This document shows positions 178 to 24,562 of a stretch of 32,000 nt of DNA, piece by piece; position 1 is the stretch's first letter, and each line of letters opens with the position of its first letter. Location of the stretch: positions 240,001 through 272,000 of the forward strand of contig CP188086.1 of assembly GCA_049942765.1 (NCBI GenBank). Direction: 5' to 3'. Position numbers and translations under genes: made by a program. The notes under the pieces were generated by a model. The model saw nothing but the letters and a program-made list of their open reading frames with translations, did no database searches and had not been told where the DNA came from. The stretch is from Candidatus Saccharimonadota bacterium. GTDB taxonomy: Bacteria; Pseudomonadota; Gammaproteobacteria; Enterobacterales; Enterobacteriaceae.

Positions 178-434
178 TATTGTTTTGATATTTTTAAAAA
201 ATAATTGATTTTAATAGTAGTTATTTAACTATAATATTACATATTTTTGTATGTGTCTTTTTAATATAACAATTAGTTAGATGTGTGTAATATATATATT
301 ATTTTTATGATTTTTATATTTATGAAGAGTGATATTATATTTTTATAAAAGTAATTTATTAATTATTTAGTTTAAGTGTTATATCAGATAATATTTTTGT
401 TCGTTTATTTTTTAACTACTTAGGATATTTCGTT

Positions 435-3849: not shown

Positions 3850-4516
3850 GATTTATATTTCTCAAGTATTTATTAATAAATATAATGTTAATTATGTAGG
3901 ATTTTTTTTGTGTTTTATATGTTTACATATACGGTTTTGTTTTATTATGTTTTTAACATATAAATTAAAAATATTTATTTATTTAATAACATTAATTTAT
4001 ATAAAATTATATAATATTATATGTTTTAATTAAGTATTATGTTATTTATTATTAATAATATCATTATGTAATTAATTTATTAAATAATTTATATAATAAA
4101 AATTATTATTATTATTTGATATATTTTTTAGGAACTTCATAGATAATATATTTTTTACATTAACAATACATATGTATATTAATTATATAGCACTATATTA
4201 GTTATTTAATTATTGTTATTGTAAATTTTTTATTCGAGTTTATTTCTTATAAATGAAAATTAATTTTAATATATAAAAATTTATAGAATATAGTAGTATT
4301 TTCTAATGGATATTATGTTTTTAATTTTTAATTAACAATTAATTGATATTTGTAATTATTTTATATAAAAATAAAATATATATATTTATATATATTAATA
4401 AGTATGTGATTTAAAATTTAATGTTAAATTATTTTTATTTTGACACATATTATGTATATTTGATTAATTTTAAATATAGTTTTTTCAATTCAAATTTTGA
4501 AATTATTAATTATTTT

Positions 4517-5704
4517 ATGAAAAAAACCACATTTCCGATTTTAAGATCTATATTAGATACAGATGCTTATAAAATACATATGCAACAAGTAATTTTTTTT
4601 AAATATAATACAGTTCATGTTGTATCTAAATTTATTTGTAGAGATAATAATAGGTTAGGTCGATACAAAAATATATTAATTGAACAAATTCAAATGATGT
4701 CTAACATATCTCTCACGCATGAAGAATATGTATACTTATTATCTTTTCCTTATTTTAAATTAGAATATTTAAATTGGTTAAAAGATTTCCGTTTTAATGT
4801 GTCACAAGTAAAAATAAACAATTATCGTAATGAGTTACATATTATTGTAACAGGATTATGGAAAGAAGTAATATTATGGGAAGTTCCTATATTATCTTTA
4901 GTAAGTGAAATTGTAAATCGAGATCGTTATCCTCATGTCGATGAAATAGTAGCTACAAATTATTTGAATAGAAAGTTATTAGATTTCTATCAACAATATC
5001 AAAATATTGATCTATTAAAATTAAAGATTATAGATTTTGGAACTAGACGTCGTTTTTCATATAATGTTCATATGTCTGTTATTTATCAATTAAAAAAAAA
5101 ATTAACTTGTTTTTCAGGTACTAGTAATTATCATTTTGCACGTATGTTTGATTTAACTCCTGTAGGTACTCAATCTCATGAATGGTTTCAAGCTCATCAA
5201 CAAATAAGCCCTATTTTATCAGATAGTCAGAAATTAGCTTTGTATGTTTGGGTTAATTTTTATCATGATTACTTAAATATTGCATTAACTGATTGTATTA
5301 CTATGGATGTTTTTTTGCAAGATTTTCAATATCAATTAGCTAGAAAATATAAGGGTATTAGACATGATTCTGGAGATCCTGTCATATGGGGTGAAAAGGC
5401 TATTCATCATTATCGTAAGTTAGGAATTGATCCTTTAAAGAAAATATTGTTGTTTTCTGATAATTTGAATTTTAAAAAAATAATTTATTTATATAAACGA
5501 TTTTTAAATAGGTCTCAATTAGTATTTGGTTTAGGTACTAATTTAACATGTGATATTCCTAATGTAAAGGCTTTAAACATTGTTTTAAAATTAGTATTAT
5601 GTAATGATAAACCTGTTGCTAAAATTTCTGATTGTCTTGGTAAAACATTTTGTTTAGATGAATCTTATATAACATCTTTAAAACAAGCATATAATTTATG
5701 TTAA
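4517..5704 (+). CDS. pncB: Nicotinate phosphoribosyltransferase
   Basis: Colinear with E. coli PncB. MKKTTFPILRSILDTDAYKIHMQQ aligns residue for residue with [24 protein letters not shown], so I place the start at the internal ATG 4517 rather than the ORF-track ATG 4421. The 32 upstream codons are low-complexity with no homology. Confidence 0.9.
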   Translation: MKKTTFPILRSILDTDAYKIHMQQVIFFKYNTVHVVSKFICRDNNRLGRYKNILIEQIQMMSNISLTHEEYVYLLSFPYFKLEYLNWLKDFRFNVSQVKINNYRNELHIIVTGLWKEVILWEVPILSLVSEIVNRDRYPHVDEIVATNYLNRKLLDFYQQYQNIDLLKLKIIDFGTRRRFSYNVHMSVIYQLKKKLTCFSGTSNYHFARMFDLTPVGTQSHEWFQAHQQISPILSDSQKLALYVWVNFYHDYLNIALTDCITMDVFLQDFQYQLARKYKGIRHDSGDPVIWGEKAIHHYRKLGIDPLKKILLFSDNLNFKKIIYLYKRFLNRSQLVFGLGTNLTCDIPNVKALNIVLKLVLCNDKPVAKISDCLGKTFCLDESYITSLKQAYNLC

Positions 5705-5914
5705 ATCTATATTTACATTTATTGTTTTTTTTTACAAGAATATATAATATTAATTATTAATTTAAATGATTTTAACCTAATATTATGTAGAAACATTAAT
5801 TTCTAGTTATTTTATAATAAATACGATGATTATTGTTTGTTAAATATCTTAATATAAATTTAAGTAAATTATAAATTTATATATATTATTTATTGTTGAT
5901 TATAGGATGATTAT

Positions 5915-7315
5915 ATGCATATGGTGTCTGTAATAGATTTATATGAAGAGAAGATTAATGTAAATACAATTATAAATATTCGAGGTTGGGTCCGTAGTAG
6001 ACGTGATTCTAAATTAGGGTTTTCTTTTTTGAACGTTTATGATGGTTCTATTATATTTTCTATTCAATGTATAGTATATAGTAATGTTGATAATTATTCT
6101 TCTGAGGTGTTAAAACTCACTATGGGGTGTTCAGTTAGTATAGTGGGAAAATTAGTAAATTCTAAGAATATACAGCAAAAATATGAGATTTTAGTACAAA
6201 AAATTCAGGTAATTGGTTGGGTGGATAAACCGAATACTTATCCAATATCTAGAAAGAAACATAGTATGGAGTTCTTAAGATCTGTATTACATTTAAGACC
6301 TAGAACTAATATAATTGGTGTGATTTCTAGAATAAGACATATGTTATTAATTACATTACATGATTTTTTACATCAGAAACAACATTATTGGATACCGACA
6401 CCAATTATTACAGGTATTGATACTGAAGGTTCTAGTGCTATGTTTCGTGTGTCGACGTTGGATTTTTATAATCTACCTAAAAATACATATGGATGTATTG
6501 ATTTTAAAGAAGATTTTTTTGGAAAAGAGTCATTTTTAACCGTTTCAGGTCAACTCACATTAGAAGCTTATGCTAGCGCTTTGTCTAAAGTTTATACGTT
6601 TGGACCTACTTTTCGTGCAGAAAATTCTAATACAAGTCGTCATCTAGCAGAATTTTGGATGTTAGAAATAGAACAATCTTTTTCTAATTTAAATCATATT
6701 ATTAGTTTTGCTGAGTCTATGTTAAAATATGTAATAAATGTTATTTTACATAAGTGTTCATATGAAATTGATTTTTTAAAAAAAAATATTAACTCTAATA
6801 TTGAAGATAAACTTAAGTGTTTAACTATGACTGATTTTGTTAGAATTAATTATATAGATGTGATTAATATTTTAATGCAATCTAATCAGATTTTTAAAGA
6901 TCCAGTTAAGTTCGGATCAGATTTATCGACTGAACATGAAAAATATATAGTTTCATATTATGGTAACGTTCCTGTAATTATTAAAAATTATCCAAAAGAA
7001 TTAAAAGCTTTTTATATGCTTTTAAATGATGATCAGAAAACTGTGTCTGCATTTGATATTTTGTTACCTGGAATTGGGGAGATAATTGGTGGTTCAGAAA
7101 GAGAATTCAAAATAGATGTTTTATTACATAGATTAAAAGAATTAAATTTTAATAGTGATAATTATAATTGGTATTTGGATTTAAGACGATATGGTACTGT
7201 CCCTCATTCAGGTTTTGGATTAGGTTTTGAAAGATTGCTTGCTTTTATTACAGATATTTCTAACATAAAAGATTTAATTCCATTTCCGCGTACAGTTAAA
7301 AATTCTCAATGTTAA
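5915..7315 (+). CDS. asnS: Asparaginyl-tRNA synthetase
   Basis: 466 aa, the same length as E. coli AsnS and colinear throughout (RGWVRSRRDSKLGFSF, FRVSTLD, FFGKESFLTVSGQL, GPTFRAENSNTSRHLAEFWMLE, YGTVPHSGFGLGFERL). An AGGA Shine-Dalgarno lies just upstream. Confidence 0.95.
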   Translation: MHMVSVIDLYEEKINVNTIINIRGWVRSRRDSKLGFSFLNVYDGSIIFSIQCIVYSNVDNYSSEVLKLTMGCSVSIVGKLVNSKNIQQKYEILVQKIQVIGWVDKPNTYPISRKKHSMEFLRSVLHLRPRTNIIGVISRIRHMLLITLHDFLHQKQHYWIPTPIITGIDTEGSSAMFRVSTLDFYNLPKNTYGCIDFKEDFFGKESFLTVSGQLTLEAYASALSKVYTFGPTFRAENSNTSRHLAEFWMLEIEQSFSNLNHIISFAESMLKYVINVILHKCSYEIDFLKKNINSNIEDKLKCLTMTDFVRINYIDVINILMQSNQIFKDPVKFGSDLSTEHEKYIVSYYGNVPVIIKNYPKELKAFYMLLNDDQKTVSAFDILLPGIGEIIGGSEREFKIDVLLHRLKELNFNSDNYNWYLDLRRYGTVPHSGFGLGFERLLAFITDISNIKDLIPFPRTVKNSQC

Positions 7316-7540
7316 ATATAATTATTTGATTAAAGTTTAGAAATAAATTTTATTGGGATTGATTTTTATTAATCATTGTATACTATTTTAGTATATGTTA
7401 AAATTAATTCATTTAATTGAAATAGTTAAATTTATTTATTTATTTCTTAATATAGTATTATAAATTTTATTTTAATAAAAATATTTAATTTTAAAATCTT
7501 ATAAAATAAAAACTAATTTAATGTTTAATACATTAATATA

Positions 7541-8671
7541 ATGGTAAAATACAATTTTATGCATAAATATAAATGTTTAATAATATTTATTATTGTCTTA
7601 TTTTTTATGGACATAGGTGTAGTTAATGCTGACATTTTATATAGCCAAAATGGTGATACTTTAAAAATAAATAGTACAGTCAATACTAGTAATAGTATAT
7701 CTAATTTTAATCATTTACATTCCATGGAAATAGATAATAGCAATAATAAAGCATTTCTATCAATATTATCTACTAAGAAAATTAACGATGATTTAACTAG
7801 TTATAATAATGTTGAATATGTTTTTGATTTAGGTAGTTTTAAAGATAATGAATTTAATCGACCTCATGCTAATGTTAATTTAAATGTTTTTGGTTTAAAA
7901 TCGAATAAATTTGGTTCTCTTGACTATGGTTTAAATCGTTGTATTATGGAAGATACAAATTTAATACATGATGAAAAAATTAATACTAATAATGATTTAT
8001 TTCATTTTAATAATAATTTTTTAATAGGTGCTACTGATAATATATTAACATATAGAAATAATAATTTTTTTGGATTGGCTAAGGATCTGAAAGTATCTTT
8101 TCAATATCAAGGTCGAAATATTGATTTAAATTCTATAGAAAATAATGAATATAGTTTAGGTTCTTCAATTAAATACAAAAATAAATTAGGTTTTAGTGCT
8201 GCAGGTGCTGTTTTTTATGGGAAAAGAAGTGTACATCGTATAGAAGATATGCAAGGTAGCATGGCTCATGCTTATGCATTAAGTGCAAAATATATACATG
8301 ATAAAGCTTATTTATCTGTATTTTACGGTAAAACAAGCAATGTAATACCTCAAGTTTCAAATAATTATTTTGATAAAGATAATCGTAGTATAAAATTATT
8401 AGTGGGATATCATTTTATTCCTAAAATGAATTCTTCTATTGCATATTCTGAATCTCAGAGTCATAAATTGGACATTTTGGGTTTTCCTGAGAAAGATAAA
8501 ACTATGTTTTTTAGTAAAAAAATAGATTTTTCTAATTATTACCATATTAATAAAAATATTGGCACTTACCTTAATTATACAATAAATTTATTACAAGATA
8601 ATAATTACTTATCTAATTCCCATATTTCTACACATGATAATATTGATATAGGTTTAATCTATCATTTATAA
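7541..8671 (+). CDS. ompF: OmpF/OmpC-family general porin, highly diverged
   Basis: Signal peptide ending ..GVVNA followed by DILYSQNGDTLK (E. coli OmpF: ..ANA AEIYNKDGNKV). It shows the beta-strand-like alternation typical of porins, a C-terminal strand ..IDIGLIYHL, and a position next to asnS as in E. coli. The start could be ATG 7559 instead of 7541. Confidence 0.75.
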   Translation: MVKYNFMHKYKCLIIFIIVLFFMDIGVVNADILYSQNGDTLKINSTVNTSNSISNFNHLHSMEIDNSNNKAFLSILSTKKINDDLTSYNNVEYVFDLGSFKDNEFNRPHANVNLNVFGLKSNKFGSLDYGLNRCIMEDTNLIHDEKINTNNDLFHFNNNFLIGATDNILTYRNNNFFGLAKDLKVSFQYQGRNIDLNSIENNEYSLGSSIKYKNKLGFSAAGAVFYGKRSVHRIEDMQGSMAHAYALSAKYIHDKAYLSVFYGKTSNVIPQVSNNYFDKDNRSIKLLVGYHFIPKMNSSIAYSESQSHKLDILGFPEKDKTMFFSKKIDFSNYYHINKNIGTYLNYTINLLQDNNYLSNSHISTHDNIDIGLIYHL

Positions 8672-8762
8672 TGTTATTAACAAAATGATATATAAAATTT
8701 AATTAATAATTTTTTCTACAGTGTTATTTGATGTCTATATCAGGTGATTTTTTATTTTATTT

Positions 8763-8851
8763 ATCTTCTGAACTACTTTTCCTAAAAACAATATTTTTTA
8801 TTAAAAATATCTATGATAAATGATTTGTTTTTTAATTATAGTTCAGAAGAT
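8763..8851. repeat. Perfect 13-bp inverted repeat (atcttctgaacta / tagttcagaagat) with a 63-nt spacer
   Basis: Read directly: 8763-8775 is the exact reverse complement of 8839-8851, with four G/C pairs in an otherwise almost G/C-free spacer. It lies between the convergent porin and hinT genes. Confidence 0.6.
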
Positions 8852-9127
8852 TAATAAGTTTATTATGTAATAGATATAAACACTATAATTCATAGTTAAA
8901 AATGTTTTATTTTTGATTAAAAATGTTCATGTTATATTTGAAATATATTTTTATTTTAAAGAAAGTAAAAAAAATTGATGTTAATTTAATATGTAATTTG
9001 AATATAGTGATTAGCTCTAGAGTTATTGAAATTCATATATTTATTATTTGACTAATTTAATCAGTTATAATTTTTGTTTTTAACAATAAATAACGAATAT
9101 TGTTTATATTATGTAATTTTGATTAAT

Positions 9128-9487
9128 TTATATTTTATTAGATATATTAGGACCTAATGGTGCTCCACCAAGTAAATGAAGATGTAGATAAGATATTTCT
9201 TGCCCTGCGTGTTTATTGCAGTTTAATATTATTCGATATCCTGATTGATCAATGTTTTTCATTTTAGCTATTTTAGTAGCAATATAAAACATATGACCTA
9301 CTATTTTTTTATTTGATTGATTAACTTGGTTTGCTGTTGGTATATGTTGTTTAGGAATAATTAATATATGTATTGGAGCTTGAGGTTGTATATCGTTGAT
9401 AACTATGACATATTGATCTTGATATAAGATATTAGATTTAATTTCTCCTGTGATAATTTTATGAAATATTGTCGTTTGATTACTCAT
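9128..9487 (-). CDS. hinT: HIT-family purine nucleoside phosphoramidase (HinT/YcfF)
   Basis: 119 aa, the same length as E. coli HinT and colinear with it: TIFHKIITGEI, QPQAPIHILIIPK, and the histidine triad HLHLHLLGG. Confidence 0.92.
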   Translation of the reverse strand: MSNQTTIFHKIITGEIKSNILYQDQYVIVINDIQPQAPIHILIIPKQHIPTANQVNQSNKKIVGHMFYIATKIAKMKNIDQSGYRIILNCNKHAGQEISYLHLHLLGGAPLGPNISNKI

Positions 9488-9575
9488 GATTTGCCCTTAA
9501 TAAAAAATACTAATTAAAATAATTAATGTAGTATTATGTATTTTTAATAATGATTAAAATAATTTAATTTTAAAT

Positions 9576-9609
9576 ACACAAGGTTAAGTTTATTAACTTT
9601 TCCTTGTGT
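9576..9609 (-). terminator. Candidate stem-loop terminator immediately 3' of ptsG
   Basis: An 8-bp stem (acacaagg 9576-9583 pairs with ccttgtgt 9602-9609) with an 18-nt loop. It starts 15 nt after the ptsG stop on the minus strand and is followed by A/T-rich sequence. The loop is long and there is no clean U-run, so this is weak. Confidence 0.35.
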
Positions 9610-9623
9610 GATAGTTTTTCTTG

Positions 9624-11057
9624 TTAATGTTTAGTATATTTCTCCATAAGAGTTTTAATATTGTCTGATTTAGTTCCAAATACTATTTGAATTCCTCGAC
9701 CAGATATAATGACTCCAGTGGCACCAATTAATTTTAATTTGTCCTGGTTTACTTTAGATATTGTAACAACAGTGATTCTTAATCGAGTAATACAAGCATC
9801 TAGATTATCAATATTTTCTATACCTCCTAAAATAGTTATTAATTGAGATGCTATTTCTTGATTATTATAAGATGGTGCATGAGTTGTTGTTTTTTCTCGA
9901 CCTGGAGTTTGAAAATTAAATTTTTTAATTAAGACATAAAAAATTATGTAGTACAATGTAGCATAACCTAATCCTACAATAGGAAACAACCATATTTTAT
10001 TACTATTACCGCTCAATATTATAAAATCAATCAATCCATGAGAGAAACTTGTTCCAGCTTTCATATCTAATAAAACGCAAATTGTAAAAGCTAACCCAGA
10101 TAGTATAGCGTGTATTATGTATAGTATTGGTGCTATTAAAATAAATGAAAATTCTATAGGTTCTGTAATACCTGTTAGAAAAGCAGTCAACGAAGCAGAC
10201 ATCATTACTCCTCCTACTTGTTTTCGATTTTCTGGTTTTGCAGATTGCCATATAGCTATAGCAGCACCTGGTAATCCATACATTTTAAATAAAAAGCCAC
10301 CAGATAATCGACCTGCAGTTGGATCTCCTGCCATGTATCTTGCTATATCTCCATGGAATACTTGACCAATAGAATTAGTATATTCACCTATTTGCATTTG
10401 AAATGGAACATTCCAAATATGATGTAACCCAAAGGGAACTAATGTTCGTTCTATAAAACCATAGATACCAAATGCTAGGAGTGGATTTTGATATGCTGAC
10501 CATTCTGAAAATTTTTTAATAACAATTCCAATAGGAGGCCATATAAAAGCTAATATTATACCTAATAGTATAGCGGTTAATCCTGATACAATGGGAACAA
10601 AACGTTTTCCAGAAAAAAAACCTAAATATTCTGGTAATTGTATATGTTGACATATATTGAATAAATAAGAAGAAACAATGCCCACAATAATACCACCTAC
10701 TATCCCTGTATCACATAATAAATTTTTTGATTCTATATTTGTAGAATTAATATTTAATATCATAGGATATACAATTAATAAAGTATTAATCATAATTCCG
10801 TAAGATACTACAGCAGCTAATGCTGATACACCATCATTTTTAGTGAATCCTAACGCTACACCAATAGCAAAAATTAAAGGCATATTAGAAAATATAGAAC
10901 TTCCAGCAGCAGCCATAATATTGGATATAACGATTGGTATAAAGCTAAAGTTAGCTGATCCAACACCTAATAGAATTCCAGCAATGGGTAATACAGAGAC
11001 AGGTAACATAAGGGATTTACCTACCTTTTGCAGGTTGGCAAATAAATCGTTAAACAT
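9624..11057 (-). CDS. ptsG: PTS glucose-specific EIICB component
   Basis: 477 aa, the same length as E. coli PtsG and near-identical over long stretches ([60 protein letters not shown], the EIIB phosphorylation site LDACITRLR). An AGGAG Shine-Dalgarno lies 8 nt upstream. Confidence 0.97.
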
Positions 11058-11176
11058 ATTGTCAAACTCCTGGTTGTTATGATTCTAATAAGGTATTATT
11101 ATATTAATAATGAAATACATTTTATGTATTTTATAGTTCAAAAAAATTATATATTATTTATAGTATAATAAAATTT

Positions 11177-11965
11177 TTATTTCATAAAATCATCTAATTG
11201 TATACCGAATAAGTTTATAAAATTTTTTGTAGTAACTTCTGATATTGTTTGTAGGCTTATTTTTTTATAATCTGATATATATTTTGCAATATTATATAAA
11301 AAAGCTGGTTGGTTTTCTTTTCCTCTATATGGAATTGGTGTTAAGTAAGGTGAATCTGTTTCTATTAACATACAGTCGATAGGAATATATTTCAATGCTG
11401 TTCTGATGTTGTCGGCATTTTTAAAAGTAATTATTCCTGAAAATGAGATATAAAAACCAATATCTAATAATTGTTTTGCATAATTAATATCTTCACAAAA
11501 GGAATGCAAAACTCCTCGACATGAATAATTGTGTTGATTTTTTAATATTTTAATAGTATCTAGTATTGCATTTCTAGAATGAATAATAATCGGTTTATTA
11601 GTTTTTATTGATAAATTTATATGTTTTTCAAATAATTTTTGTTGTTCATTTTTTTTTTTATCATTGGAGTGATAATCTAACCCAGTTTCTCCTATTGCAA
11701 TAATTTTTTTGTTGTTAAGTACTGTGTTTAAATTTAATATATTATTATTTTTTAGATATAGAGGGTGAATACCGTAACTATAAAAAATATTTTTATGAGA
11801 TTTGTATAACTGTGATACATATTCAAAATTGTCTATTGAAGTAGATATTGTCAGAAATATTTTGACATAATTTTTATATGCTTTTTGTAATACATCATTG
11901 ATATTTGTATGTATTGTTTTATAGTTTAAACGATCTAAATGACAATGACTATCTATTAACAACAT
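11177..11965 (-). CDS. ycfH: TatD-family metal-dependent hydrolase/DNase YcfH
   Basis: 262 aa, colinear with E. coli YcfH: LIDSHCHLD, IGETGLDY, PIIIHSR, GVLHSF, GFYISFSGIITF, ETDSPYLTPIPYRGKENQPA. It holds the conserved position between holB and ptsG. Confidence 0.9.
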   Translation of the reverse strand: MLLIDSHCHLDRLNYKTIHTNINDVLQKAYKNYVKIFLTISTSIDNFEYVSQLYKSHKNIFYSYGIHPLYLKNNNILNLNTVLNNKKIIAIGETGLDYHSNDKKKNEQQKLFEKHINLSIKTNKPIIIHSRNAILDTIKILKNQHNYSCRGVLHSFCEDINYAKQLLDIGFYISFSGIITFKNADNIRTALKYIPIDCMLIETDSPYLTPIPYRGKENQPAFLYNIAKYISDYKKISLQTISEVTTKNFINLFGIQLDDFMK

Positions 11966-11992
11966 AATAATCCTTTCTCTTTTTTTATAAAA

Positions 11993-12978
11993 TTATTCTA
12001 ATGTATTTAATATGCGTTCCCAATATAGTAATTGTTTTATAATTATAAGTTCATAATTAATATTTTTGATATTATGTAATTGATAGTAACATAAATGCCA
12101 ACATCGAATAATTTTATTTAAATTTGTAATGGAATGAACACAAGATAATTGTTGTATCAACAAAATTTGATCAATATTATGTATTAATCTAAATAAATTA
12201 TATTTATTTTTTAAAATATCTAACAATAAAGAAGATATCCAGGAAATTGTTTGTAAACTATTAGTTTTAGAAAAAAAAGAAAATAGGGGTAGAATATTTT
12301 TTTTTTTATAGATAATTTAATTTGTTTAAATAAATTAATTCTTTGTTTCCAAAGAGATGTACTTAATAATTTCTGTGCTGTAATAGGAGAACCTTCACAA
12401 ATTTTTAAAGCTGTTTGGCACATTGTAGTTGTAACATTAGTTTTTTTTTTTAACCAATTTAAACTATCTTGTTCTAATGGTAATAATAAGTTATAACTAA
12501 TACATCTACTAATTAATGTGTCAATTAATTGATAATTATTGTTTTTTTTAAAGAAAAACCAAGTATTCTTTGGTGGTTCTTCAATTAATTTCAATAAGAG
12601 ATGAATTCTATTAGAATTTAATTGTTCTATTTCAGAAAAAAAAAATATTTTGTTAATATTTTGTTGAGGTGTCTTGTATGCATTATTAAGTATATTTGAT
12701 ATAGAATCAATGTTATTATCAGTATTATTTTTTGTTTCAAATATATGATACCAATCTGGATGAACATTATGATTCATAAGTATACAGCTAGAACATGTAT
12801 TACAGTACAAAATATTTTTTTTATTGATACATAATATCCATTTTCCGATATTAAAAATCAATTCATTAATACCTATTTCTTGACTTGATTTTAATATTAT
12901 GGCATGATGACTTTTATTTTTTTTGTGTTGTTGAATTATATTTTTATAGTATGGTATTAACCATGGTAACATATTCAT
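11993..12978 (-). CDS. holB: DNA polymerase III delta' subunit (HolB); reading frame as written is broken by a 1-nt frameshift in an A11 tract
   Basis: Track ORFs 12220..12996 and 11993..12226 are the N- and C-terminal parts of one HolB homologue. MNMLPWL.. aligns with E. coli MRWYPWL.., LIEEPPKNTWFFF with LEEPPAETWFFL, and ISWISSLLLDILK with HWLATLLMDALK. The frames join if the minus-strand A11 run (12297-12307) is read as A12. The preferred start is ATG 12978, which overlaps the tmk TGA as ATGA; the ORF-track ATG is at 12996. Confidence 0.85.
12297..12307 (-). other. A11 homopolymer (T11 on the plus strand) that is the holB frameshift site
   Basis: Counted directly: ..tctat(a)11tattct.. 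on the minus strand. Upstream homology is in one frame. Downstream homology is in the frame reached by +1 A (or -2 A). Confidence 0.85.
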
Positions 12979-13622
12979 TTTTGTTGTTGTATCCATGTAT
13001 TTATTTTCTTAAAAATCATTTTTTTAACTATTTTTTCATTATAATTAGCATTGATTGTAATAGATTTGGTATTATTTTTAATTAATTCTAAATATTTTTT
13101 TCTTGTTCTAATAAAAAAATCTATGTTTTTTTTTTCTATTCTATCTAATGTACTTCTATGATATGCTCGATTAAGACCTACAGTAGGATTTACATCTAGG
13201 TATATTGTTAAATCTGGGTAAAAATTTTTTAAACACATTTTTCTTAAGTACGTGATATGTTTTTTTTTAATTTGGCATCCACCACCTTGGTATGCAAAAG
13301 TTGACATATCATGTCGATCTCCAATTACCCAATACCCTTTTTTTAAGGCTGGTTTAATAACATTTTCTACTAATTGAAGTCTAGCTGCATACATTAATAA
13401 TAATTCAGTTTTGTTCATTACTATTTCTGTTTGATATTCTGTTTTAAGTAATTTTCTAATTTTTTCAGCTAAATCAGTACTACCTGGTTCTCTTACAGAA
13501 ATAATGTTTTTAATGCCATATAAAGTTAAAATATGTTTAATGTATAAACAGGCATTATGTTTTCCAGCTCCTTCAATTCCTTCAACAACAATAAATTTAT
13601 TGTTTTTTTTCGGTATGATCAT
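12975..13622 (-). CDS. tmk: Thymidylate kinase
   Basis: 215 aa, colinear with E. coli Tmk: FIVVEGIEGAGK P-loop, REPGST, LLMYAARLQLVENVIKPAL, VIGDRHDMSTFAYQGGG, DLTIYLDV, LDRIE. It ends in TGA. Confidence 0.93.
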   Translation of the reverse strand: MIIPKKNNKFIVVEGIEGAGKHNACLYIKHILTLYGIKNIISVREPGSTDLAEKIRKLLKTEYQTEIVMNKTELLLMYAARLQLVENVIKPALKKGYWVIGDRHDMSTFAYQGGGCQIKKKHITYLRKMCLKNFYPDLTIYLDVNPTVGLNRAYHRSTLDRIEKKNIDFFIRTRKKYLELIKNNTKSITINANYNEKIVKKMIFKKINTWIQQQK

Positions 13623-13868
13623 ATTGATTTTTATATTTATATGAATGTAATGTTAGTTATTAAAGTTAAATATTTATGAAAATTTTTGTTCATATTCATC
13701 TTTATTGAATATTGTTTAGATTTTATTTGGATTTAATATATGATGTATGTTACTAATATTTAGTAAATATGTAATAATATTATTTTTAATAAAATATTAT
13801 ATGTTATTTTATGGAATATAACCTTTAATTGTTACATCAATAAATATAATAATGTTTATTAAAACAAT

Positions 13869-14117
13869 TTATTTCTTATGATTATTTATTTTATTAAATA
13901 TAAAATCAATTGTGTTTTGTACATTTTTAAGTTTTTCTGCATTTTTATCAGAAATTTCAATGTTGAATTCTTTTTCCAAAGACATAATTAATTCTATTAT
14001 ATCAAGTGAATCTGCATGTAAATTTGTTTTAAATTCATCAGTATTAAGTATTGAATTAATATTGAGATTAAATTGATTAGATATAATTTTTTTAATTTTT
14101 TTTTCTATGTTTTTCAT
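13869..14117 (-). CDS. acpP: Acyl carrier protein
   Basis: 82 aa with the phosphopantetheine attachment motif LHADSLDIIELIMSLEKEF (E. coli LGADSLDTVELVMALEEEF). It lies downstream of fabG as in E. coli. Confidence 0.93.
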   Translation of the reverse strand: MKNIEKKIKKIISNQFNLNINSILNTDEFKTNLHADSLDIIELIMSLEKEFNIEISDKNAEKLKNVQNTIDFIFNKINNHKK

Positions 14118-14229
14118 AATGTTTTTTTATAAATGATGAGTAAATTAAATTTATTAAGTTTTTTGTATTTTCATTGATCAAGTATTTTTAAGAAACAATA
14201 TTATTTTGTTTAAAATATTGTTTTTATGT

Positions 14230-14958
14230 TTAATGCATATACATTCCTCCATTAATATGTAAAGTATGTCCTGTGATATATGAAGATTGGTTAGATGATA
14301 AAAAAATTACAGCATTTGCTATATCGTTAGTAGTACCTAATCTTCTCATTGGTATTTTATTTATGTATTCATTTTTTTGTTTTGTATCAATAGTATTGAT
14401 CATATCTGTTTTAATTAAACCTGGTGCAATAATATTTACAGTTATTCCGTATTTAGCCACCTCTAAAGCTAATGATTTATGAAATCCTATTAAACCTGCT
14501 TTAGAAGTAGCATAACTAATTTGTCCAATATTACCTATTGATCCAATCATTGATCCAATTGTGATAATTTTTCCTGATTTTTTTAATATCATATTTTTAA
14601 TAACTAATTTAGATATTTGAAATATAGATGTTAAATTAGTTTGAATGATTTTTTCCCATTCTTGAGTTGTTGTTTTGATTAACAAATTATTATAATTAAT
14701 TCCAGCATTATTAATTAATATATCAACAAATCCTATTTTTTTATTAACATAATTAATAGTATTTTTGATAGAAACAGGGTTTTCTAAATCTAGTAATAAC
14801 CCTTTTCCATTATTTTTTAAGATATTATTAATATAATTGACTCCTTTAATATTTCTAGATGTACCGATAACTATTCTTACTTTTTTTTTTAATTTTTTAA
14901 TTATAGCTGCTCCTATACCTCTATTAGCACCAGTAATTAATGCAATTTTATTTTTCAA
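14230..14958 (-). CDS. fabG: 3-oxoacyl-ACP reductase
   Basis: Colinear with E. coli FabG: KIALITGANRGIG, NNAGI, the catalytic YATSKAGLIGF, and HINGGMYM at the C-terminus. I place the start at TTG 14958 (product MKNKIALITG.., 242 aa vs 244 in E. coli), preceded by AGGAG at 9-nt spacing. The ORF-track ATG 15036 would add 26 non-homologous residues that overlap fabD. Confidence 0.88.
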   Translation of the reverse strand: MKNKIALITGANRGIGAAIIKKLKKKVRIVIGTSRNIKGVNYINNILKNNGKGLLLDLENPVSIKNTINYVNKKIGFVDILINNAGINYNNLLIKTTTQEWEKIIQTNLTSIFQISKLVIKNMILKKSGKIITIGSMIGSIGNIGQISYATSKAGLIGFHKSLALEVAKYGITVNIIAPGLIKTDMINTIDTKQKNEYINKIPMRRLGTTNDIANAVIFLSSNQSSYITGHTLHINGGMYMH

Positions 14959-15901
14959 ATATCTTTGACTCCTGTAATATTGTTTTGGTTGCAATTTTAA
15001 AGTTTCTAGGATGGTGCAACGATATTGATACAACATTATTTATTGATTTATTTAGATTAGTTAATATTTTATTGATTCCTATTTCTAATAATATAGATAT
15101 ATTTTTTGATATAATGAAATTAATACTTTTTCTCCAATTAATTGGTTGAATTAATTGTCTAATAAGAGCATTTTTAATCTTTTGGCTATTATATTCACAT
15201 TGAATATCAACATTATTTATTATAGGTAATTTTGGTTTATTAAATTTTGTATTTTTTAATATTTTTGATAATTGTATTGAAGCTGATTGCATTAAACTAC
15301 AATGTGAAGCAATATTAATTGTTAATGTAAAAATTGCTTTTGCTCCTTGTTTTTTACATTCTAAGGAAGCTAAGTAAACGTTATTTTTATGACCTGTAAT
15401 AATAATTTCAGATTCTGAATTTATACTAGCAATAGTTACTAGACCATCTGTAGAAAATTTTTTGCATATTAAAAATATAGTATTAATATCTAATCCGATT
15501 ATGGCTGCCATTAAACCTGGTTTTCCAAACATGGACTTTTTCATAAGTTCATTACGTATGATAACAAGATTTAATGCATTATGAAAACTTATACATTGAG
15601 AACATACTAAGGCTGTATATTCTCCTAAACTATGCCCTGCTATAAAATTTGGATATATATTAATATTTTTATTCCATAATCTATAAATAGAAATTGAAAT
15701 AGTAAGTAAAATTGCTGGCATGTATTGATGATAGGTGTTTGTATCTATGTTTTTTTTTTTAATTAATTTCCATAAATCATAATTTAAATAATGAGATGCT
15801 TCGTCAAATGTTTTTTTTGCTTTAGGATAATTATAAGTAAATATATTAAGATTGTTTAAATTACATGATCCTTGACCTGGAAAAATAATCGCGAAGTTCA
15901 T
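14948..15901 (-). CDS. fabD: Malonyl-CoA:ACP transacylase
   Basis: Colinear with E. coli FabD: MNFAIIFPGQGS (E. coli MTQFAFVFPGQGS), the active-site GHSLGEYTAL, IASHCSLM and PINW. The start is taken at ATG 15901, which matches the E. coli N-terminus; the ORF-track ATG 15919 is the alternative. Confidence 0.9.
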   Translation of the reverse strand: MNFAIIFPGQGSCNLNNLNIFTYNYPKAKKTFDEASHYLNYDLWKLIKKKNIDTNTYHQYMPAILLTISISIYRLWNKNINIYPNFIAGHSLGEYTALVCSQCISFHNALNLVIIRNELMKKSMFGKPGLMAAIIGLDINTIFLICKKFSTDGLVTIASINSESEIIITGHKNNVYLASLECKKQGAKAIFTLTINIASHCSLMQSASIQLSKILKNTKFNKPKLPIINNVDIQCEYNSQKIKNALIRQLIQPINWRKSINFIISKNISILLEIGINKILTNLNKSINNVVSISLHHPRNFKIATKTILQESKIFEK

Positions 15902-15978
15902 TTTTAATGATATCTCCATATTAAATTAATATAATAATTAATATTATTTAATTTTTTTATACGAAAGAAATTATATTT

Positions 15979-16143
15979 TTATAATACTTTTTTTCCACGA
16001 TAGTATCCTTTAAGAGTTATATGATGTCTTCTATGTGTTTCACCAGATTTTGCATCAATTGATAATGTAGGAAATGTTACAATGTCATGTAATCTTCTCA
16101 TACCGCGTTTGGATCTAGATGGTTTATTTTTTTGAACTGCCAT
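15979..16143 (-). CDS. rpmF: 50S ribosomal protein L32
   Basis: Not in the ORF track (54 aa). My minus-strand translation is [54 protein letters not shown]. This matches E. coli L32 ([20 protein letters not shown]...GEKHLRHHIT.DGYYRGRKV). Confidence 0.92.
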
Positions 16144-16209
16144 GATAATCTCGCTTTTCTAGTTTGATTTTATGAAATTTTTGTTAATTATATCTTAAGT
16201 AATGTTTTA

Positions 16210-17151
16210 TTATAAATATTTTTCAAAAGAACAATCCAAAGGAGCTTTAATACATAGTTGTTTTTTTGTAAACGGATGTATAAAAGAAATACTTCTTGCA
16301 TGTAATAATAATCTTTTTTGACGATTATGTGAATCTATTTTTGTATCTAATATTTTAGATCCATATCGATTATCAAATACAACTGGATGGCCCATATGTG
16401 TAGTATGTACTCTAATTTGGTGTGTTCTACCAGTAATTGGTATTGCATAAATGAGAGTGGTTAATTTATAATATTTAATTATTTTAATTTGTGTTTCTGA
16501 TATTTTTCCTAATTGGTGTACATAAACTTTTTTTTTATTAATTGCTATAGAGTTTAATTTTTTTAATAACGGTATTTTAATTGTTTTATTATGATTAGAC
16601 CAATGTCCATGTATAAGAGCTATATAAATTTTTTTAATTTTATGATCTCTAAATTGTTGATGTAAATGATTTAGTATTGTACGTTTTTTAGCAACAAGTA
16701 AAACTCCACTAGTTTCTTTATCAATTCTATGTACCAGTTCTAAATATTTATAATTATAATATAATATTCTTAATTGTTCTATAATACCTAAATGAATACC
16801 GCTGCCTCCATGTACTGCAATGCCAGATGGTTTATTAATTACTAATATATGTTCATCTTCAAATAGAATTTTTTGTTTTAATTTAAGTTTATCATTATAA
16901 TTTGTAATTTCTTTTTTTTTATTATTATTTCTATTTTGTAATGGAGGTATTCTAATAATATCTCCTTCTTGTATTTTATATTTTGGTAAAACTTTTTTTT
17001 TATTAACTTTGATTTGTCCAGTTCTTAAAATTTTATAAATTATGCTTTTTGGGGTTTTTTTAAATTTTGAAAATAAATAATTATCAATTCTTTGAGGTGT
17101 TATGCATTGAGTGATTTGTATTATTTGTACATTATTTATTATATTAGACAT
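16210..17151 (-). CDS. rluC: 23S rRNA pseudouridine synthase RluC (RluA family, with N-terminal S4 domain)
   Basis: 313 aa. It has an S4-like N-terminus (RIDNYL..IYKILRTGQIKVN), the catalytic HRIDKETSGVLLVAK motif and GRTHQIRVH. It sits divergent from rne and next to rpmF, as in E. coli. Confidence 0.88.
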   Translation of the reverse strand: MSNIINNVQIIQITQCITPQRIDNYLFSKFKKTPKSIIYKILRTGQIKVNKKKVLPKYKIQEGDIIRIPPLQNRNNNKKKEITNYNDKLKLKQKILFEDEHILVINKPSGIAVHGGSGIHLGIIEQLRILYYNYKYLELVHRIDKETSGVLLVAKKRTILNHLHQQFRDHKIKKIYIALIHGHWSNHNKTIKIPLLKKLNSIAINKKKVYVHQLGKISETQIKIIKYYKLTTLIYAIPITGRTHQIRVHTTHMGHPVVFDNRYGSKILDTKIDSHNRQKRLLLHARSISFIHPFTKKQLCIKAPLDCSFEKYL

Positions 17152-17584
17152 GTATATATTTTAGTATAACTTTATTATTAAAAGAATTTTTTGTTATATT
17201 TAATTAATTAAATTTATTTAAATAAATAGTATATATACTATTATATAGTAATATTTTGTTAAATATATATTTTTTATATATATAAATTTAAATTTTATAG
17301 AGAATATTTATTCTAATTTTAGTTAAATAATAGTGATAGCAGTTATTAATATTTTTAAAATGATTAAAACATATTTATATAATATCATATTATATATCAA
17401 TATATAATATAATTGTTAATTATAATATATTTAATTGTATTAAATATAAATTTTTTATTAGTTATAAATAATTTTTAATAAATTAAAATATAAAATTGTA
17501 CATATAAAGTATTATTTTATATATAATGTTTTATTTTTTATAATTTTTTATTTCCATTTCAAAATAATACTAGAGATATGTATC

Positions 17585-18928
17585 ATGAAAAGAATGTTGA
17601 TTAATGCCACTCAACAAGGGAAACTAAGGGTGGCTCTAGTAGATGGTTATCGATTATATGATTTAGATATTGAAGTTACTGGTAATAAAAAAAAAAAATT
17701 TAATATATATAAAGGAATTATCGTCAATATTGAACCAAGTTTAGAAGCAGCATTTGTTAATTATGGTTTAAAAAAACATGGTTTTTTACCATTAAAGGAG
17801 ATATCTGAAAATTATTTTTATAAACATGATAAAAATAATAAAAAGATCAGTATTAACGATATTATTAGAGAGGGGCAACAATTAATTGTACAAATTAGTA
17901 CAGAAGAACGAGGAAATAAAGGAGCTTTGTTAACTACATTTATTAGTTTACCAGGCAGTTATTTAGTATTAATGCCTAATAATCCTAGAACTTTGGGTGT
18001 GTCTAGGAAAATTGTTGGTTTTAATAGAATAGCACTAAAAGAAATGTTATTATCACTATCAATTCCTAAAAATATGGGATTAATTATTCGTACGGCTGGA
18101 TTAGGGAAATCAATTAAAACATTACAATATGATTTAGATTGTAAAGTCCAACTATGGCAATCTATCGTACATAATTATCGAAATTATTCTTCACCAATTT
18201 TACTATATCAAGATAGTAATATCTTGATACGTGCATTTAGAGATTATTTGCATGAAGATATAGGTGAAATTTTAATTGATAATCCTAATATATTTTCTTT
18301 TGCATGTCATCATATAAATTTATTAGGTCGATTAGATTTTATAAATAAAATTAAATTGTATACAGGATCCACTCCATTATTTAGTTATTATCAAATTGAA
18401 TCTCAAATTAATTTAATTTTTCAAAGAGTAGTAAGATTACCTTCAGGAGGTGAAATTGTTTTTGATAACACGGAAGCATTGATTGCTATTGATGTGAATT
18501 CATCTCGTTCAACTCAAGGGATGGATATTGAACAAACTGCATTTAATACAAATTTAGAAGCTGTTTATGAAATTACTAGACAATTGCGATTAAGAGATTT
18601 AGGTGGTTTAATTGTTATTGATTTTATTGATATGACATTATTGAATCATCAGAAATCTGTTGAAAATATATTGAGAGATATAGTTAAATATGATAGAGCT
18701 AAAGTACATGTTGGTTGTATTTCTCGTTTTGGTTTATTAGAGATGTCTAGACAGCGGATGAGATCTTCTTTAGTTGGTTCTATTAATAATATTTGTTCTA
18801 GATGTAGTGGTACTGGATTTATTCAAGATAATAAATCTCTTTCGTTATTGATTTTAGGATTGATACAATTAATAGTTTTTAAAGAAAATATATGTATAGA
18901 AGATATTATAGCTGCTATAGAAAATTGA
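17585..18928 (+). CDS. rne: Ribonuclease E, N-terminal catalytic region, terminated as written by an in-frame TGA at 18926-18928
   Basis: 447-aa ORF almost colinear with E. coli RNase E residues 1 to ~447: MKRMLINATQQ, S1-domain IYKGIIVNIEPSLEAAFV, ERGNKGALLTTFISLPGSYLVLMPNNPR, DNTEALIAIDVNS, LRLRDLGGLIVIDFIDM, ISRFGLLEMSRQR, and the Zn-link CSRCSGTG. Confidence 0.92.
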   Translation: MKRMLINATQQGKLRVALVDGYRLYDLDIEVTGNKKKKFNIYKGIIVNIEPSLEAAFVNYGLKKHGFLPLKEISENYFYKHDKNNKKISINDIIREGQQLIVQISTEERGNKGALLTTFISLPGSYLVLMPNNPRTLGVSRKIVGFNRIALKEMLLSLSIPKNMGLIIRTAGLGKSIKTLQYDLDCKVQLWQSIVHNYRNYSSPILLYQDSNILIRAFRDYLHEDIGEILIDNPNIFSFACHHINLLGRLDFINKIKLYTGSTPLFSYYQIESQINLIFQRVVRLPSGGEIVFDNTEALIAIDVNSSRSTQGMDIEQTAFNTNLEAVYEITRQLRLRDLGGLIVIDFIDMTLLNHQKSVENILRDIVKYDRAKVHVGCISRFGLLEMSRQRMRSSLVGSINNICSRCSGTGFIQDNKSLSLLILGLIQLIVFKENICIEDIIAAIEN

Positions 18929-19315
18929 TATTGTTTATTAGATAAGAAAAAACAAGAAATAAATAATATTGAAAAATATCGTTTAAAAAGTCAAATGATA
19001 GTTATACAGAATAAAAATATAAAAATTCCTCATTATTCTATTATTAAAATTAAAAAAGGAAAACATATTAAAAATAATAGTTATAATTTATTTAAAACAT
19101 GTACGAAACTATTATTTCGTAGTAATAGATTACAGATCAATAATATGTTGAATAATTTATCTCAAATTTTATACAATTTATATTTTTTTTATTTTAATAC
19201 TAGAAAAAAAGAAGATAATCAAATTAAGCATTTTAATACATTGTATATTTTAATGTATAAAATATATGATTTTTTTCTTCAAAAAAAAATATTGAAAAAA
19301 TTATATTATTTTTAA
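18929..19315 (+). other. rne: In-frame continuation of rne beyond the TGA (small-domain remnant plus a short tail)
   Basis: It is in the same frame as 17585..18928, with no further stop until 19313-19315. The translation YCLLDKKKQEINNIEKYRLKSQMIVIQNKNIKIPHYSIIKIKKGK aligns without gaps to E. coli SYLLNEKRSAVNAIETRQDGVRCVIVPNDQMETPHYSVLRVRKGE. The ORF track lists only the part from ATG 18995. Confidence 0.75.
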
Positions 19316-20182
19316 GTACTTTTTATTTTTTTATTTTACTGTCCAATTTAGAAAAACATTAACAATAAAAATTTATTAAGTAATGTTTATATTTAATTTA
19401 ATATATATTTTATATGATATAGGTTATTAATGTATTTTTAATAATTAAATTATTAATTATGTTTAAAAACATTTCAATTATATAATTATATTTAATATGT
19501 CTTATTTTATAAATAATGTCAATAACATGTTTAAATTATTTATGATATTGTTTTTAATTTATATGATAATTTTTAGATACATAAAAAATTATTTTTATAA
19601 AATTTATTTTTAATACATATTTTTTATTTATTAAATGAATTTTGGTTATTTTTAGATTTTATATAACAGATTATTTTGATTAAATTTGTTTAAATGAACA
19701 AGATTTTTTATTTTTATACTTTATAAGTAATTATGTATAATGTTTTTATTATTAAAAATAATTAATTTATTAAAAATATAATTTTATTTGATTTCATTAT
19801 TTATTTAATTAATTAGGTTTTAATTTGTATGTAATACAATTTATTGATGTTATATGTATTATTTAATAATTTTATATATATAATTCATTATTTAGATTTG
19901 TGTAATATTAATATTTGTTATATTAAATTTTTTTATTGTTTTAATAAATTCATAACTATTTATATTCTTTTTTTGTTATTTTTTGTTGTTAATTATATTT
20001 AATTTATTAGAAATATACAAATTATTAGTATATCTCTAGTTAATATGCGTTACATTTCAAAAAATGTTTTTATTTTTTTCAATTATAATTTTTTATTTTT
20101 AAACTTTGATGTATTGTATTCCTACTTCGTAGGGAGACATAATTAAATATGTTGTATTAATTTTTATTTATATGTATTAAAT

Positions 20183-20219
20183 ATACATCATATATATATC
20201 ATATATATATATGATGTAT
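20183..20219. repeat. 37-nt near-perfect palindrome (17-bp arms, 3-nt centre) between convergent rne and flgK
   Basis: Checked base by base: atacatcatatatatat (20183-20199) pairs with atatatatatgatgtat (20203-20219). The core is (TA)n but the outer tacatca/tgatgta is specific. The 12-mer atgtattaaata also occurs twice, at 20172 and 20212. Confidence 0.6.
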
Positions 20220-20375
20220 TAAATAAATTTTATTGTATGGAAGGAAATTAGAAATTTGTATTTTTATTACCTGTTGGTATAATAAAAATATATTAATATC
20301 AATCAAATATATGAAGTAATCAACTAACTTATGTATGTTGTTTGTAAACATTATATTAAATTATATAATTTTTTT

Positions 20376-21980
20376 TTATGTTTTGTTAATTTTGTTTACA
20401 GAATGATATTCATTAATAGTTTTTTCTTCATTTTCTTGTGGTAATACATGTATTATTGATTGATTTAATGGTTTGTTTAATTTGTAATCATCAATTTTTT
20501 TCTGAATAAAATTTTTTAGGTTTGCATATGCTTCCTGACATGTTTCTGATTGATTGACTATTTTTTCGCGATGTAAAAGTATTAGTTGTTCTATGTTTTC
20601 TACAAAACGAAAATTGTAATTCCATTCTTTGCTGAGAGCTATGTTAGTATTCGGAGTTGCTTCTACGTATAGATTATTAATGATATCTGAAGAATTATGT
20701 ACTATATATTTATTTTGCTCTCTTAATGTGTTTGGTTTATATGTAACTTTAATACCATTAAATATGATTGAAGAAGCATGTTCATTAATAATAGTATCGT
20801 AATCTACGGTTTTTTGATTAGTATCATCAGTATTTATTTTCCATTTATTATTTCCTAAGAAAGTTAAGTAATATTTTTCTGGTAGAGCATGATTAAAAGA
20901 ATTCCATGAAGTAAAGATATGATCTTTTTTGTTATTATATTTATTAGGTATGATTATTGGTGTGGTTTCTGAAAAAAACCTTTTTCCCATATAATTTGTT
21001 ATGTCAATTCCTGATTGATGTATTTCATTAAAATTTTTTGTAAAACTTGTGATTATTTGACCAATTTTGTTATTTACTAGGTCTAGTATATATTTACGAA
21101 AATATAATATTCCAGCTACATGACCTGTTATTATTAGAGGTTCTAATGATATCTCTCTATTTGTTGTAGGATCTATATATCCTAAGTTATATTCTATATG
21201 TGAATTATGAATATTATTATAATATGGATCTAATATTGCAATAATATTTGCTATTTTTGAATCATCAATTAGATTGTATTGCTTGTTCAGTGATATAATG
21301 AGATTATTATTCGATATATTTGTTGTGGTACCTAAAATTTCAGTTAATTCATTTGAATACTTATTTCTAATAGCAATCAAAGGTTCTATATTTTTTGATT
21401 GATTAATTCCGGTGTTAACTTGTATCTGATTATATTCTTTTATTTGTCGATGAGCGTTATTTATTATATTTAGATATCTGTTTATTTGATTAATGTAATA
21501 AAATATATCTTGATTGACATTTTTATAAAGTTCACAGATATCTTTATTAATGTTGGTGACTTCTTGTATAAATTTTTTTGCTATTACTATTGTTTGTCCT
21601 CCAAACTGTGTTTGTCGGTTTTTAAATACAGATCTACTTAAACTAATATAAAAATCCATCATATATTCATTGAAAATCTTGTGATGTTCTTCAAGTAATG
21701 CTAGAGTTTTTTTTAATTTATCATTGAATGATAATTCAAATCTTTGTTTAGGATTTGCATAATCGATATATTTGGAAGTTAAGTTATTATTGTTGTTTTT
21801 ATATATATATATTGTTTGATTATTTATATCGTTTTTATATAATTTGTTATTATGGTACTTAGATATATTATTTATGGTTTTTTTTTTATTATAAATAGTA
21901 TTTTTTATCTTATCTTGTTTTTTTAAAAAGTTGTTAGTATCATAAATTATATTGTTATATATTTTTTGAATTCTAGGCAT
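20376..21980 (-). CDS. flgK: Flagellar hook-filament junction protein 1 (FlgK), diverged, C-terminus shortened
   Basis: 534 aa. The central region aligns to E. coli FlgK (LIITGHVAGILYFRKYILDLVNNKIGQI..FNEIHQSG vs LNTGSLGGILTFRSQDLDQTRNTLGQL..FNTQHKAG, and YYLTFLGNNKWKI vs YKISFDNNQWQV). The N-terminal NNISKY matches NNISSY. It lies downstream of flgJ. Confidence 0.8.
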   Translation of the reverse strand: MPRIQKIYNNIIYDTNNFLKKQDKIKNTIYNKKKTINNISKYHNNKLYKNDINNQTIYIYKNNNNNLTSKYIDYANPKQRFELSFNDKLKKTLALLEEHHKIFNEYMMDFYISLSRSVFKNRQTQFGGQTIVIAKKFIQEVTNINKDICELYKNVNQDIFYYINQINRYLNIINNAHRQIKEYNQIQVNTGINQSKNIEPLIAIRNKYSNELTEILGTTTNISNNNLIISLNKQYNLIDDSKIANIIAILDPYYNNIHNSHIEYNLGYIDPTTNREISLEPLIITGHVAGILYFRKYILDLVNNKIGQIITSFTKNFNEIHQSGIDITNYMGKRFFSETTPIIIPNKYNNKKDHIFTSWNSFNHALPEKYYLTFLGNNKWKINTDDTNQKTVDYDTIINEHASSIIFNGIKVTYKPNTLREQNKYIVHNSSDIINNLYVEATPNTNIALSKEWNYNFRFVENIEQLILLHREKIVNQSETCQEAYANLKNFIQKKIDDYKLNKPLNQSIIHVLPQENEEKTINEYHSVNKINKT

Positions 21981-22047
21981 AATTTTTTACGTTTTATTTA
22001 AATATTAATGAATTAATTATTGAAATATTTTAGATATTAAATATTAT

Positions 22048-23483: not shown

Positions 23484-23791
23484 AATTGACCTTTTTAATT
23501 AATTTAAATTTTCATTCATTTTAATAATATTGGATTGTTATGTTATGATTAAAAATTTATATTTAAGTTTTTTGATAGTTTTGCAAACCTAATAATTCAT
23601 ATTTAAAATATTGAATAATTTTTATTATAAATTTATTTATGAAATATTAGGTTTGTGTAATATAACTAGATCATAATACTATAATAATCAAAAGGGTTTA
23701 AATAATATAATTTCAATGAATACATATATTTTTATTATCTAATAATCTATAATACATAATATATTTTAAATATATTTTACTTATCTAAATA

Positions 23792-24487: not shown

Positions 24488-24562
24488 TGTAAAATTACCT
24501 TAAATTATTATGTATTATATTGATACATAGTATTGCTACTTATTAATAATAGATGGTTGTGA

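Follow-up and report, generated by a model that had tools for sequence, protein, structure and literature searches.

Here, we describe an interrupted copy of holB, the essential gene for the clamp-loader subunit delta-prime, which lies on the minus strand of a 32,000-nucleotide stretch of DNA (positions 240,001 to 272,000 of contig CP188086.1; hereinafter the window, whose numbering is used throughout). The source of the window, which has a G+C content of about 21%, is Buchnera aphidicola (Eriosoma harunire), represented by the 627,315-bp contig CP188086. After assembly with miniasm from Nanopore R10.3 reads basecalled with Guppy 4.2.3, this contig underwent Racon correction and three rounds of Pilon polishing with the 75-bp paired Illumina reads of run SRR33632139; the DNA came from one wild gall colony, and the annotation comprises 489 protein genes and 17 pseudogenes (PMC12243488). 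At 12220-12996, the minus strand contains a 258-amino acid open reading frame (ORF), for which a protein search returned an identical entry, XRX42803.1. The public label of this entry is 'MAG: hypothetical protein ACN793_01105 [Buchnera aphidicola (Eriosoma harunire)]', with no indication of a holB pseudogene or of a frameshift.

Read from the ATG at 12996, the holB frame runs through ...FKQIKLSIKKK, up to a run of 11 A (A11), and then into 25 codons without homology (IFYPYFLFFLKLIVYKQFPGYLLYC) that end in a TAG at 12222-12220. With one A added, the frame reads NILPLFSFFSKTNSLQTISWISSLLLDILKNK... (also YKKKNILPLFSFFSKTNSLQTISWISSLLLDILKNK...) and is open up to the TAA at 11995-11993. The codons across the tract are ATA AAA AAA AAA ATA in frame 0 and would be ATA AAA AAA AAA AAT with 12 A (A12). 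A TAA at 12319-12317 closes the downstream frame and so confines a productive shift to positions 12316-12297, in practice to the tract itself. A shift at the T8 run around 12270-12277 was considered and rejected, given that the Pfam and NCBIfam matches begin at residues 2-3 after the tract and that the downstream frame is closed at 12319-12317. The coordinates of the split gene, its internal tracts and its neighbors are collected in Table 1.

Table 1. Features of the interrupted holB gene and its immediate neighbors (window coordinates)
Feature	Position	Strand	Description
holB 5' part, frame 0	12298..12996	-	delta-prime domains I and II and first helix of domain III; PF13177, PF21500
A11 tract, frame-change site	12297..12307	-	homology changes frame at the tract
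Out-of-frame tail of the annotated 258-amino acid ORF	12220..12297	-	25 codons and TAG; no Pfam match
holB 3' part, -1 frame	11993..12298	-	101 sense codons and TAA; delta-prime C-terminal collar domain, PF09115
TAA closing the downstream frame 5' of the tract	12317..12319	-	three codons 5' of A11
Second A11 tract in holB, in frame (LKKKT)	12441..12451	-	internal control for tract-length calling
T10 tract in holB, in frame (KIFFFSE)	12636..12645	-	
tmk	12975..13622	-	immediately upstream of holB; PF02223; TGA overlaps the holB ATG
tatD/ycfH	11177..11965	-	downstream neighbor of holB

When the two parts are joined by one inserted A, holB encodes 334 amino acids from the first ATG (12996) or 328 amino acids from the ATG at 12978-12976, which is codon 7 and overlaps the TGA of tmk as ATGA. 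The methionine specified by the latter codon, M7, aligns with the invariant start methionine of the homologues in our alignment (A1). Translation of holB probably starts at this position, in which case the real product would be 328 amino acids long, and the overlap with tmk has the layout expected of putative translational coupling. The literal product of 258 amino acids lacks the collar domain: the frame switches early in domain III, with almost all of the collar domain missing, and there is no uninterrupted frame spanning the three domains.

The joined protein is recognizable as delta-prime throughout its length. In Pfam searches, it matches PF13177 (E=2e-27, residues 18-170), the lid domain PF21500 (E=9.7e-9) and PF09115 (E=2.1e-21, profile positions 3-116 of 117), the last of these only once the frames are joined at the tract. 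Translated alone, the downstream frame matches PF09115 with E=8.9e-19, starting at residue 2, and no Pfam match was found for the 25-codon tail. In NCBIfam, the joined protein matches the delta-prime model NF005941 in one stretch from position 1 to 325 of 334 (E=1.3e-74), with the downstream part covering profile positions 226-325. The score of 251.7 bits is below the curated cut-off of 477 bits, which is best understood as a sign of the extreme divergence of a fast-evolving lineage rather than of membership in another family, because the top matches are all delta-prime models and the gamma/tau models score far lower. The best structure matches are those to E. coli delta-prime (8val_E and 1a5t_A, E=1.6e-39), residues 4-325 of which align with the joined protein at about 30% identity and without a gap at the junction. 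Conserved in the joined protein are the four cysteines of the zinc module and the SRC motif, with S163-R164 invariant within TLISRC in alignment A1. Furthermore, the gene order tmk-holB-ycfH(tatD)-ptsG is found also in a Buchnera relative (CP140036).

These results bear out in full what the initial annotation had read from the letters of the window and the ORF list, namely, the identity of holB, the A11 tract at its minus-strand position with the nonhomologous codons, the TAG and the open frame beyond it, and the joined lengths of 334 and 328 amino acids against an E. coli protein of 334 amino acids, a length that we took from 1a5t_A. The alignment with E. coli quoted there, SWISSLLLDILKNK / HWLATLLMDALKRH, is reproduced with the sequence of this delta-prime structure. 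The placement of the shift inside the tract likewise holds, given that the profile matches change frame exactly there and that the TAA upstream of the tract closes the downstream frame.

The open frame downstream of the tract shows no excess decay. Among the 1,989 off-frame open stretches in the genes of the window, no other reaches 100 codons, and at the off-frame stop frequency of 0.123 per codon, the probability of 106 open codons by chance is about 9e-7. The presence of a homologous open frame after the tract is not due to chance. Because the relatives are saturated, at 40% amino acid identity, the ratio of C-terminal to N-terminal identity was used in place of the ratio of nonsynonymous to synonymous substitution rates. 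This ratio is 0.79 in holB compared to 0.75 +/- 0.14 in intact orthologues (Mann-Whitney p=0.72), so that, measured against the upstream part, the downstream part has diverged no more than in intact genes, and the earlier argument against an old pseudogene stands. Single-base changes that create a stop codon make up 65 of the 909 in the downstream frame, and the neutral chance of the frame staying open is 0.65, 0.34 and 0.11 at 0.02, 0.05 and 0.1 substitutions per site, respectively; indels would lower these odds further. Judging from these figures, either the lesion is young or the downstream frame is under selection.

In protein searches, the nearest HolB sequences are 40-45% identical to the joined protein. 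At the homologous site, the relatives examined have no long tract and their genes are intact, with ATA AAA AAC GGA (I-K-N-G) in one and ATA AAC AAA AAT (I-N-K-N) in another; Buchnera of Brevicoryne has K-N-K-N at this site, and IKNGS is found in other Buchnera orthologues. The product of the A12 restoration (I-K-K-K-N) aligns to Buchnera orthologues without gaps, and the simplest history that we infer is an AT-biased drift to A12 followed by the loss of one A. Restoration to A9, which involves the loss of two further bases, is possible at the RNA level but was set aside in favor of A12, which needs no gap in the alignments with orthologues.

A profile search yielded a broader sample, the best 120 HolB hits, which include some thirty Buchnera lineages (genomes of 412-647 kb), Makana (about 277 kb), Blochmannia and others. 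Nearly all these proteins are 319-342 amino acids long, the short ones being P0113 (298 amino acids) and P0007 (283 amino acids), both of which fall short at the N-terminus. With the exception of the E. harunire ORF itself (P0001), every HolB among these hits keeps PF09115. The collar domain joins the five clamp-loader subunits in E. coli gamma-complex structures such as 1jr3, and it is apparently not dispensable even in small genomes, as far as the pattern of retention goes.

On balance, and with modest confidence, we favor the possibility that a real deletion converted A12 to A11 and that transcriptional slippage, ribosome sliding or both still provide full-length delta-prime in lower amounts. 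Under this scenario, one base would have been lost from an A12 tract that encoded I-K-K-K-N, and literal reading of the remaining A11 would yield the 258-amino acid protein without the collar that holds delta-prime in the clamp-loader pentamer. The full-length protein of 334 or 328 amino acids would come from a minority of expression events, by either of two routes leading to the same ...SIKKKNILPLF... product. By the first route, RNA polymerase would slip backward on the T11 template and add an extra A to some of the transcripts. The single-base insertions seen in Buchnera transcriptomes cluster in A/T runs, and the frequency at which RNA polymerase inserts a single A grows exponentially as runs lengthen, up to 11 nucleotides (PMC5574713); a yield of about 30% full-length transcripts from frameshifted symbiont genes is attributed to Tamas et al. 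2008 in the account of Williams and Wernegreen (PMC3017870). By the second route, tRNA-Lys and the ribosome would slide one base backward on the A11 mRNA, such that in ATA AAA AAA AAA, the AT that follows would be re-read as AAT (-1). In an E. coli cell-free system, robust ribosome sliding occurs at A11 and not at A9 or A10 (PMC4363877). Given that few clamp loaders would be needed per cell, a low yield could be enough, and the downstream frame would stay under selection. Our data show the anatomy of the locus, the homology of its two halves, the agreement between two assemblies that is discussed below and the lack of extra decay downstream, whereas the A12 origin of the deletion, the rescue and its dominant route are inferred.

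Several lines of evidence weigh against such rescue. Traverse and Ochman 2017 saw no transcription error that restored the frame of a Buchnera pseudogene (PMC5574713). No stimulatory RNA structure was found at the tract, whose flanks fold no better than shuffled sequences (z=-0.22). The second A11 tract and the T10 tract of holB would be expected to lose the frame at similar rates, cutting the yield further. Conservation of the frameshift is unsupported by any sister strain, the best relative in the collections searched being 45% identical: of two contig scans, the one queried with the restored protein alone gave no hits, and the one with alignment A1, which was driven by one pattern, returned mostly Enterobacterales other than Buchnera and no close relative. 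Finally, the genome is eroding, with 17 annotated pseudogenes and an in-frame TGA in rne, 7 kb away from holB, and in such a genome, a fresh, unrescued lesion is credible.

In rne (17585-19315, plus strand), the in-frame TGA, at 18926-18928, follows codon 447, and beyond it the frame continues, with gapless homology across the stop to residues 402-504 of E. coli RNase E, which belong to the small domain. The same TGA is present in the Illumina-only Logan contig. We considered, and rejected, the reading of this TGA as tryptophan, because it is the sole in-frame TGA in about 8,000 codons of the window, the aligned E. coli residue is not tryptophan, and tmk ends on TGA. Thus, rne is a second essential gene with a lesion that breaks the ORF and an intact frame downstream. 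Between rne and flgK, about 1 kb (19316-20375) contains no ORF of note and is probably a decayed remnant of the nonconserved C-terminal half of rne.

Among the alternatives to rescue, the one that fares best is a recent inactivation, which we consider possible albeit unlikely. Under this explanation, A11 would be the true allele and holB a pseudogene of recent origin, with a downstream frame that is intact only for want of time to decay; delta-prime would be becoming dispensable, or the 258-amino acid form would be enough, or function would be supplied at the DNA level by a minority of A12 genome copies in polyploid Buchnera cells. Gene loss in these symbionts usually begins with a frameshift in a homopolymer (PMC3017870, PMC5574713), and Traverse and Ochman saw no transcripts with a restored frame. 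The pseudogene count of this genome (PMC12243488) and the broken rne point in the same direction, and the open downstream frame fits well with a lesion younger than about 0.02-0.05 neutral substitutions per site, at which the chance of staying open is 0.65-0.34. However, the collar is kept by all other holB genes among the best 120 hits, in symbionts with genomes down to 277 kb, and it is this domain that assembles the clamp-loader pentamer. Moreover, the allele is present at the consensus level in a thriving wild gall colony, which is hard to reconcile with a null allele of an essential gene, and the downstream part shows no excess divergence.

Alternatively, the consensus could be miscounted, such that the true genome has A12 (or A9), holB is intact, and A11 results from PCR (polymerase chain reaction) or sequencing stutter in the Illumina library. 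In long A/T runs, a one-base undercall is the typical stutter error. The R10.3/Guppy 4.2.3 Nanopore backbone is error-prone at homopolymers, and a single Illumina library (75 bp, PCR-amplified; PMC12243488) underlies both available assemblies, which hence are not independent at the read level. Nevertheless, two Logan contigs assembled de novo from the Illumina run alone (SRR33632139_4273 and SRR33632139_2914) cover 31.6 kb of the window and are identical to it over positions 1-17315 and 17706-32000, the A11 tract included. Because this Illumina-only de Bruijn assembly contains A11, the length is that of the Illumina consensus, and a homopolymer error left over from Nanopore does not account for it. 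Furthermore, the 24.3 kb of coding sequence in the window contain 11 sense-strand runs of at least 10 A (six A10, four A11 and one A12), and all ten of those other than the frame-change site are in frame, among them three A11 (11649-11659, 15750-15760 and 12441-12451), including the one in holB that sits 146 nucleotides upstream of the frameshifted tract, and the A12 of rne. This argues against a systematic undercall at such lengths, and the A11 tract itself is unremarkable for the window. We therefore consider a miscount improbable.

Two further observations concern the homopolymers and the library. The long homopolymers in the 24.3 kb of coding sequence are biased toward A on the sense strand, with 35 A runs of at least 8 compared to 6 T runs of at least 8, and all runs of at least 11 in the window are sense-strand A runs. 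The two Logan contigs overlap by 30 nucleotides at 17706-17735, 8 nucleotides 3' of the rne A12 (17687-17698), where the read graph branches; simple variation in tract length does not explain this meeting point. Had the Illumina library been made from complementary DNA (cDNA), the homopolymer lengths after polishing would be those of transcripts (methods of PMC12243488). The library is probably DNA, given that contigs of 58-70 kb run through intergenic regions, which argues against cDNA.

The initial annotation had left three readings side by side: a sequencing or assembly miscount, a slippage-dependent essential gene and a very recent inactivation. All three hold as explanations of the locus, and in view of the Illumina-only assembly and the ten in-frame tracts, miscount is now the least likely among them. 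Sequence does not decide between slippage rescue and recent loss.

The possibility that the frameshift itself is selected appears far more remote. That the A11 frameshift is a maintained, selected recoding site, with delta-prime made only via slippage or with a functional collar-less isoform existing beside the full-length protein, is very improbable in our estimation. If it were the case, slippage would set clamp-loader abundance and replication capacity, and holB would be the second recoded clamp-loader subunit gene after dnaX. Programmed recoding that produces two delta-prime isoforms in a set ratio (the collar-less 258-amino acid form and the full-length one), or throttles the clamp-loader supply, finds its only support in the parallel with dnaX, a recoded gene of the same complex, and in the intact downstream frame. 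However, the site is not conserved, the relatives being intact with the AAC-containing codons given above (ATA AAA AAC GGA or ATA AAC AAA AAT), the z score of -0.22 gives no sign of a stimulatory structure, and the 25-codon tail is devoid of homology, so that we give this version even less credence. Because stimulatory structure is lacking at the flanks, the putative recoding looks adventitious rather than programmed.

Finally, a split gene, in which an internal start would give a separate C-terminal domain that binds the N-terminal fragment non-covalently, is compatible with the open and homologous downstream frame but is hardly credible, given that the only conventional start in frame, the TTG at 12226, would remove the first 24 residues and leave 77 amino acids, and that the interval 12316-12226 contains neither an ATG or GTG start nor an evident ribosome-binding site.

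With respect to the rest of the window, the minus strand carries rluC, rpmF, fabD, fabG, acpP, tmk, holB, ycfH(tatD), ptsG and hinT, and the window also contains rne and the flgA-K cluster; no tRNA genes were found in the 32 kb. TAA is used at 24 of the 26 real gene ends and TAG at no natural gene end, whereas TGA serves as a natural stop only in tmk, within the ATGA overlap with holB. FlgJ (22048-22380) consists of 110 amino acids with the rod-binding domain PF10135 alone and lacks the muramidase half of E. coli FlgJ.

The case of holB adds an essential replication gene to the endosymbiont genes whose frame is broken within a poly(A) tract but which are otherwise intact; in the literature searched, we found no report of holB among such genes. 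For specialists in the erosion of symbiont genomes, it is an ordinary example. It is also a clean one, with two assemblies in agreement and an in-frame A11 control within the same gene, and hence could serve as a natural test of the contested idea that slippage or sliding sustains essential functions in Buchnera. In practical terms, the 'hypothetical protein' label implies that comparisons of gene content would wrongly score this Buchnera as lacking holB.

Comparison with known systems helps to place this gene. E. coli HolB (1a5t, 8val) resembles the restored protein in its length of 334 amino acids, its three Pfam domains and its neighbor order, tmk-holB-ycfH-ptsG, and differs in that the coding sequence of Buchnera (Eriosoma harunire) is interrupted. 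The tau/gamma recoding of dnaX involves the same complex and an A-rich slippery site (-1 frameshifting at A AAA AAG in E. coli, slippage on A9 in Thermus). However, dnaX recoding is conserved, is accompanied by a Shine-Dalgarno-like sequence and a hairpin, and gives two functional products, whereas holB has neither stimulatory structure nor conservation, and its unshifted product is a truncation with a junk tail. We tested for conservation and stimulators and, having found only the slippery A run, place holB outside the dnaX-type family of programmed -1 sites. With the ribosome sliding described by Koutmou et al. 2015 (PMC4363877), holB shares the uninterrupted A11 read as AAA lysine codons, on which a one-base backward move gives the needed frame; in the E. 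coli system, unlike the rescue proposed here, sliding amounts to loss of protein output.

The closest parallel is provided by the poly(A) frameshifts of Buchnera and Blochmannia. Such frameshifts, on which the initial annotation had drawn as background and for which a rescue by transcriptional slippage has been proposed (Tamas et al. 2008, cited in PMC3017870), are indeed well documented in symbionts, including in replication genes and in dnaX of Blochmannia (PMC3017870). In Blochmannia vafer, eight genes, including dnaX, dnaG and pth, are frameshifted in poly(A) tracts, and dnaX, the gene for the clamp-loader tau subunit, is frameshifted also in B. floridanus (PMC3017870). Common to these genes and holB are an AT-rich obligate insect endosymbiont as the host genome, a single-base indel in a sense A tract of at least 10, a gene that is otherwise intact, with no excess divergence, and a role in essential replication; the difference is that for holB, the frameshift is known from a single lineage and the putative rescue is predicted from sequence. 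As an otherwise intact gene with one indel in a long A/T homopolymer (at least about 9 nucleotides), holB belongs to this well-described class of poly(A)-tract frameshifts in Buchnera and Blochmannia.

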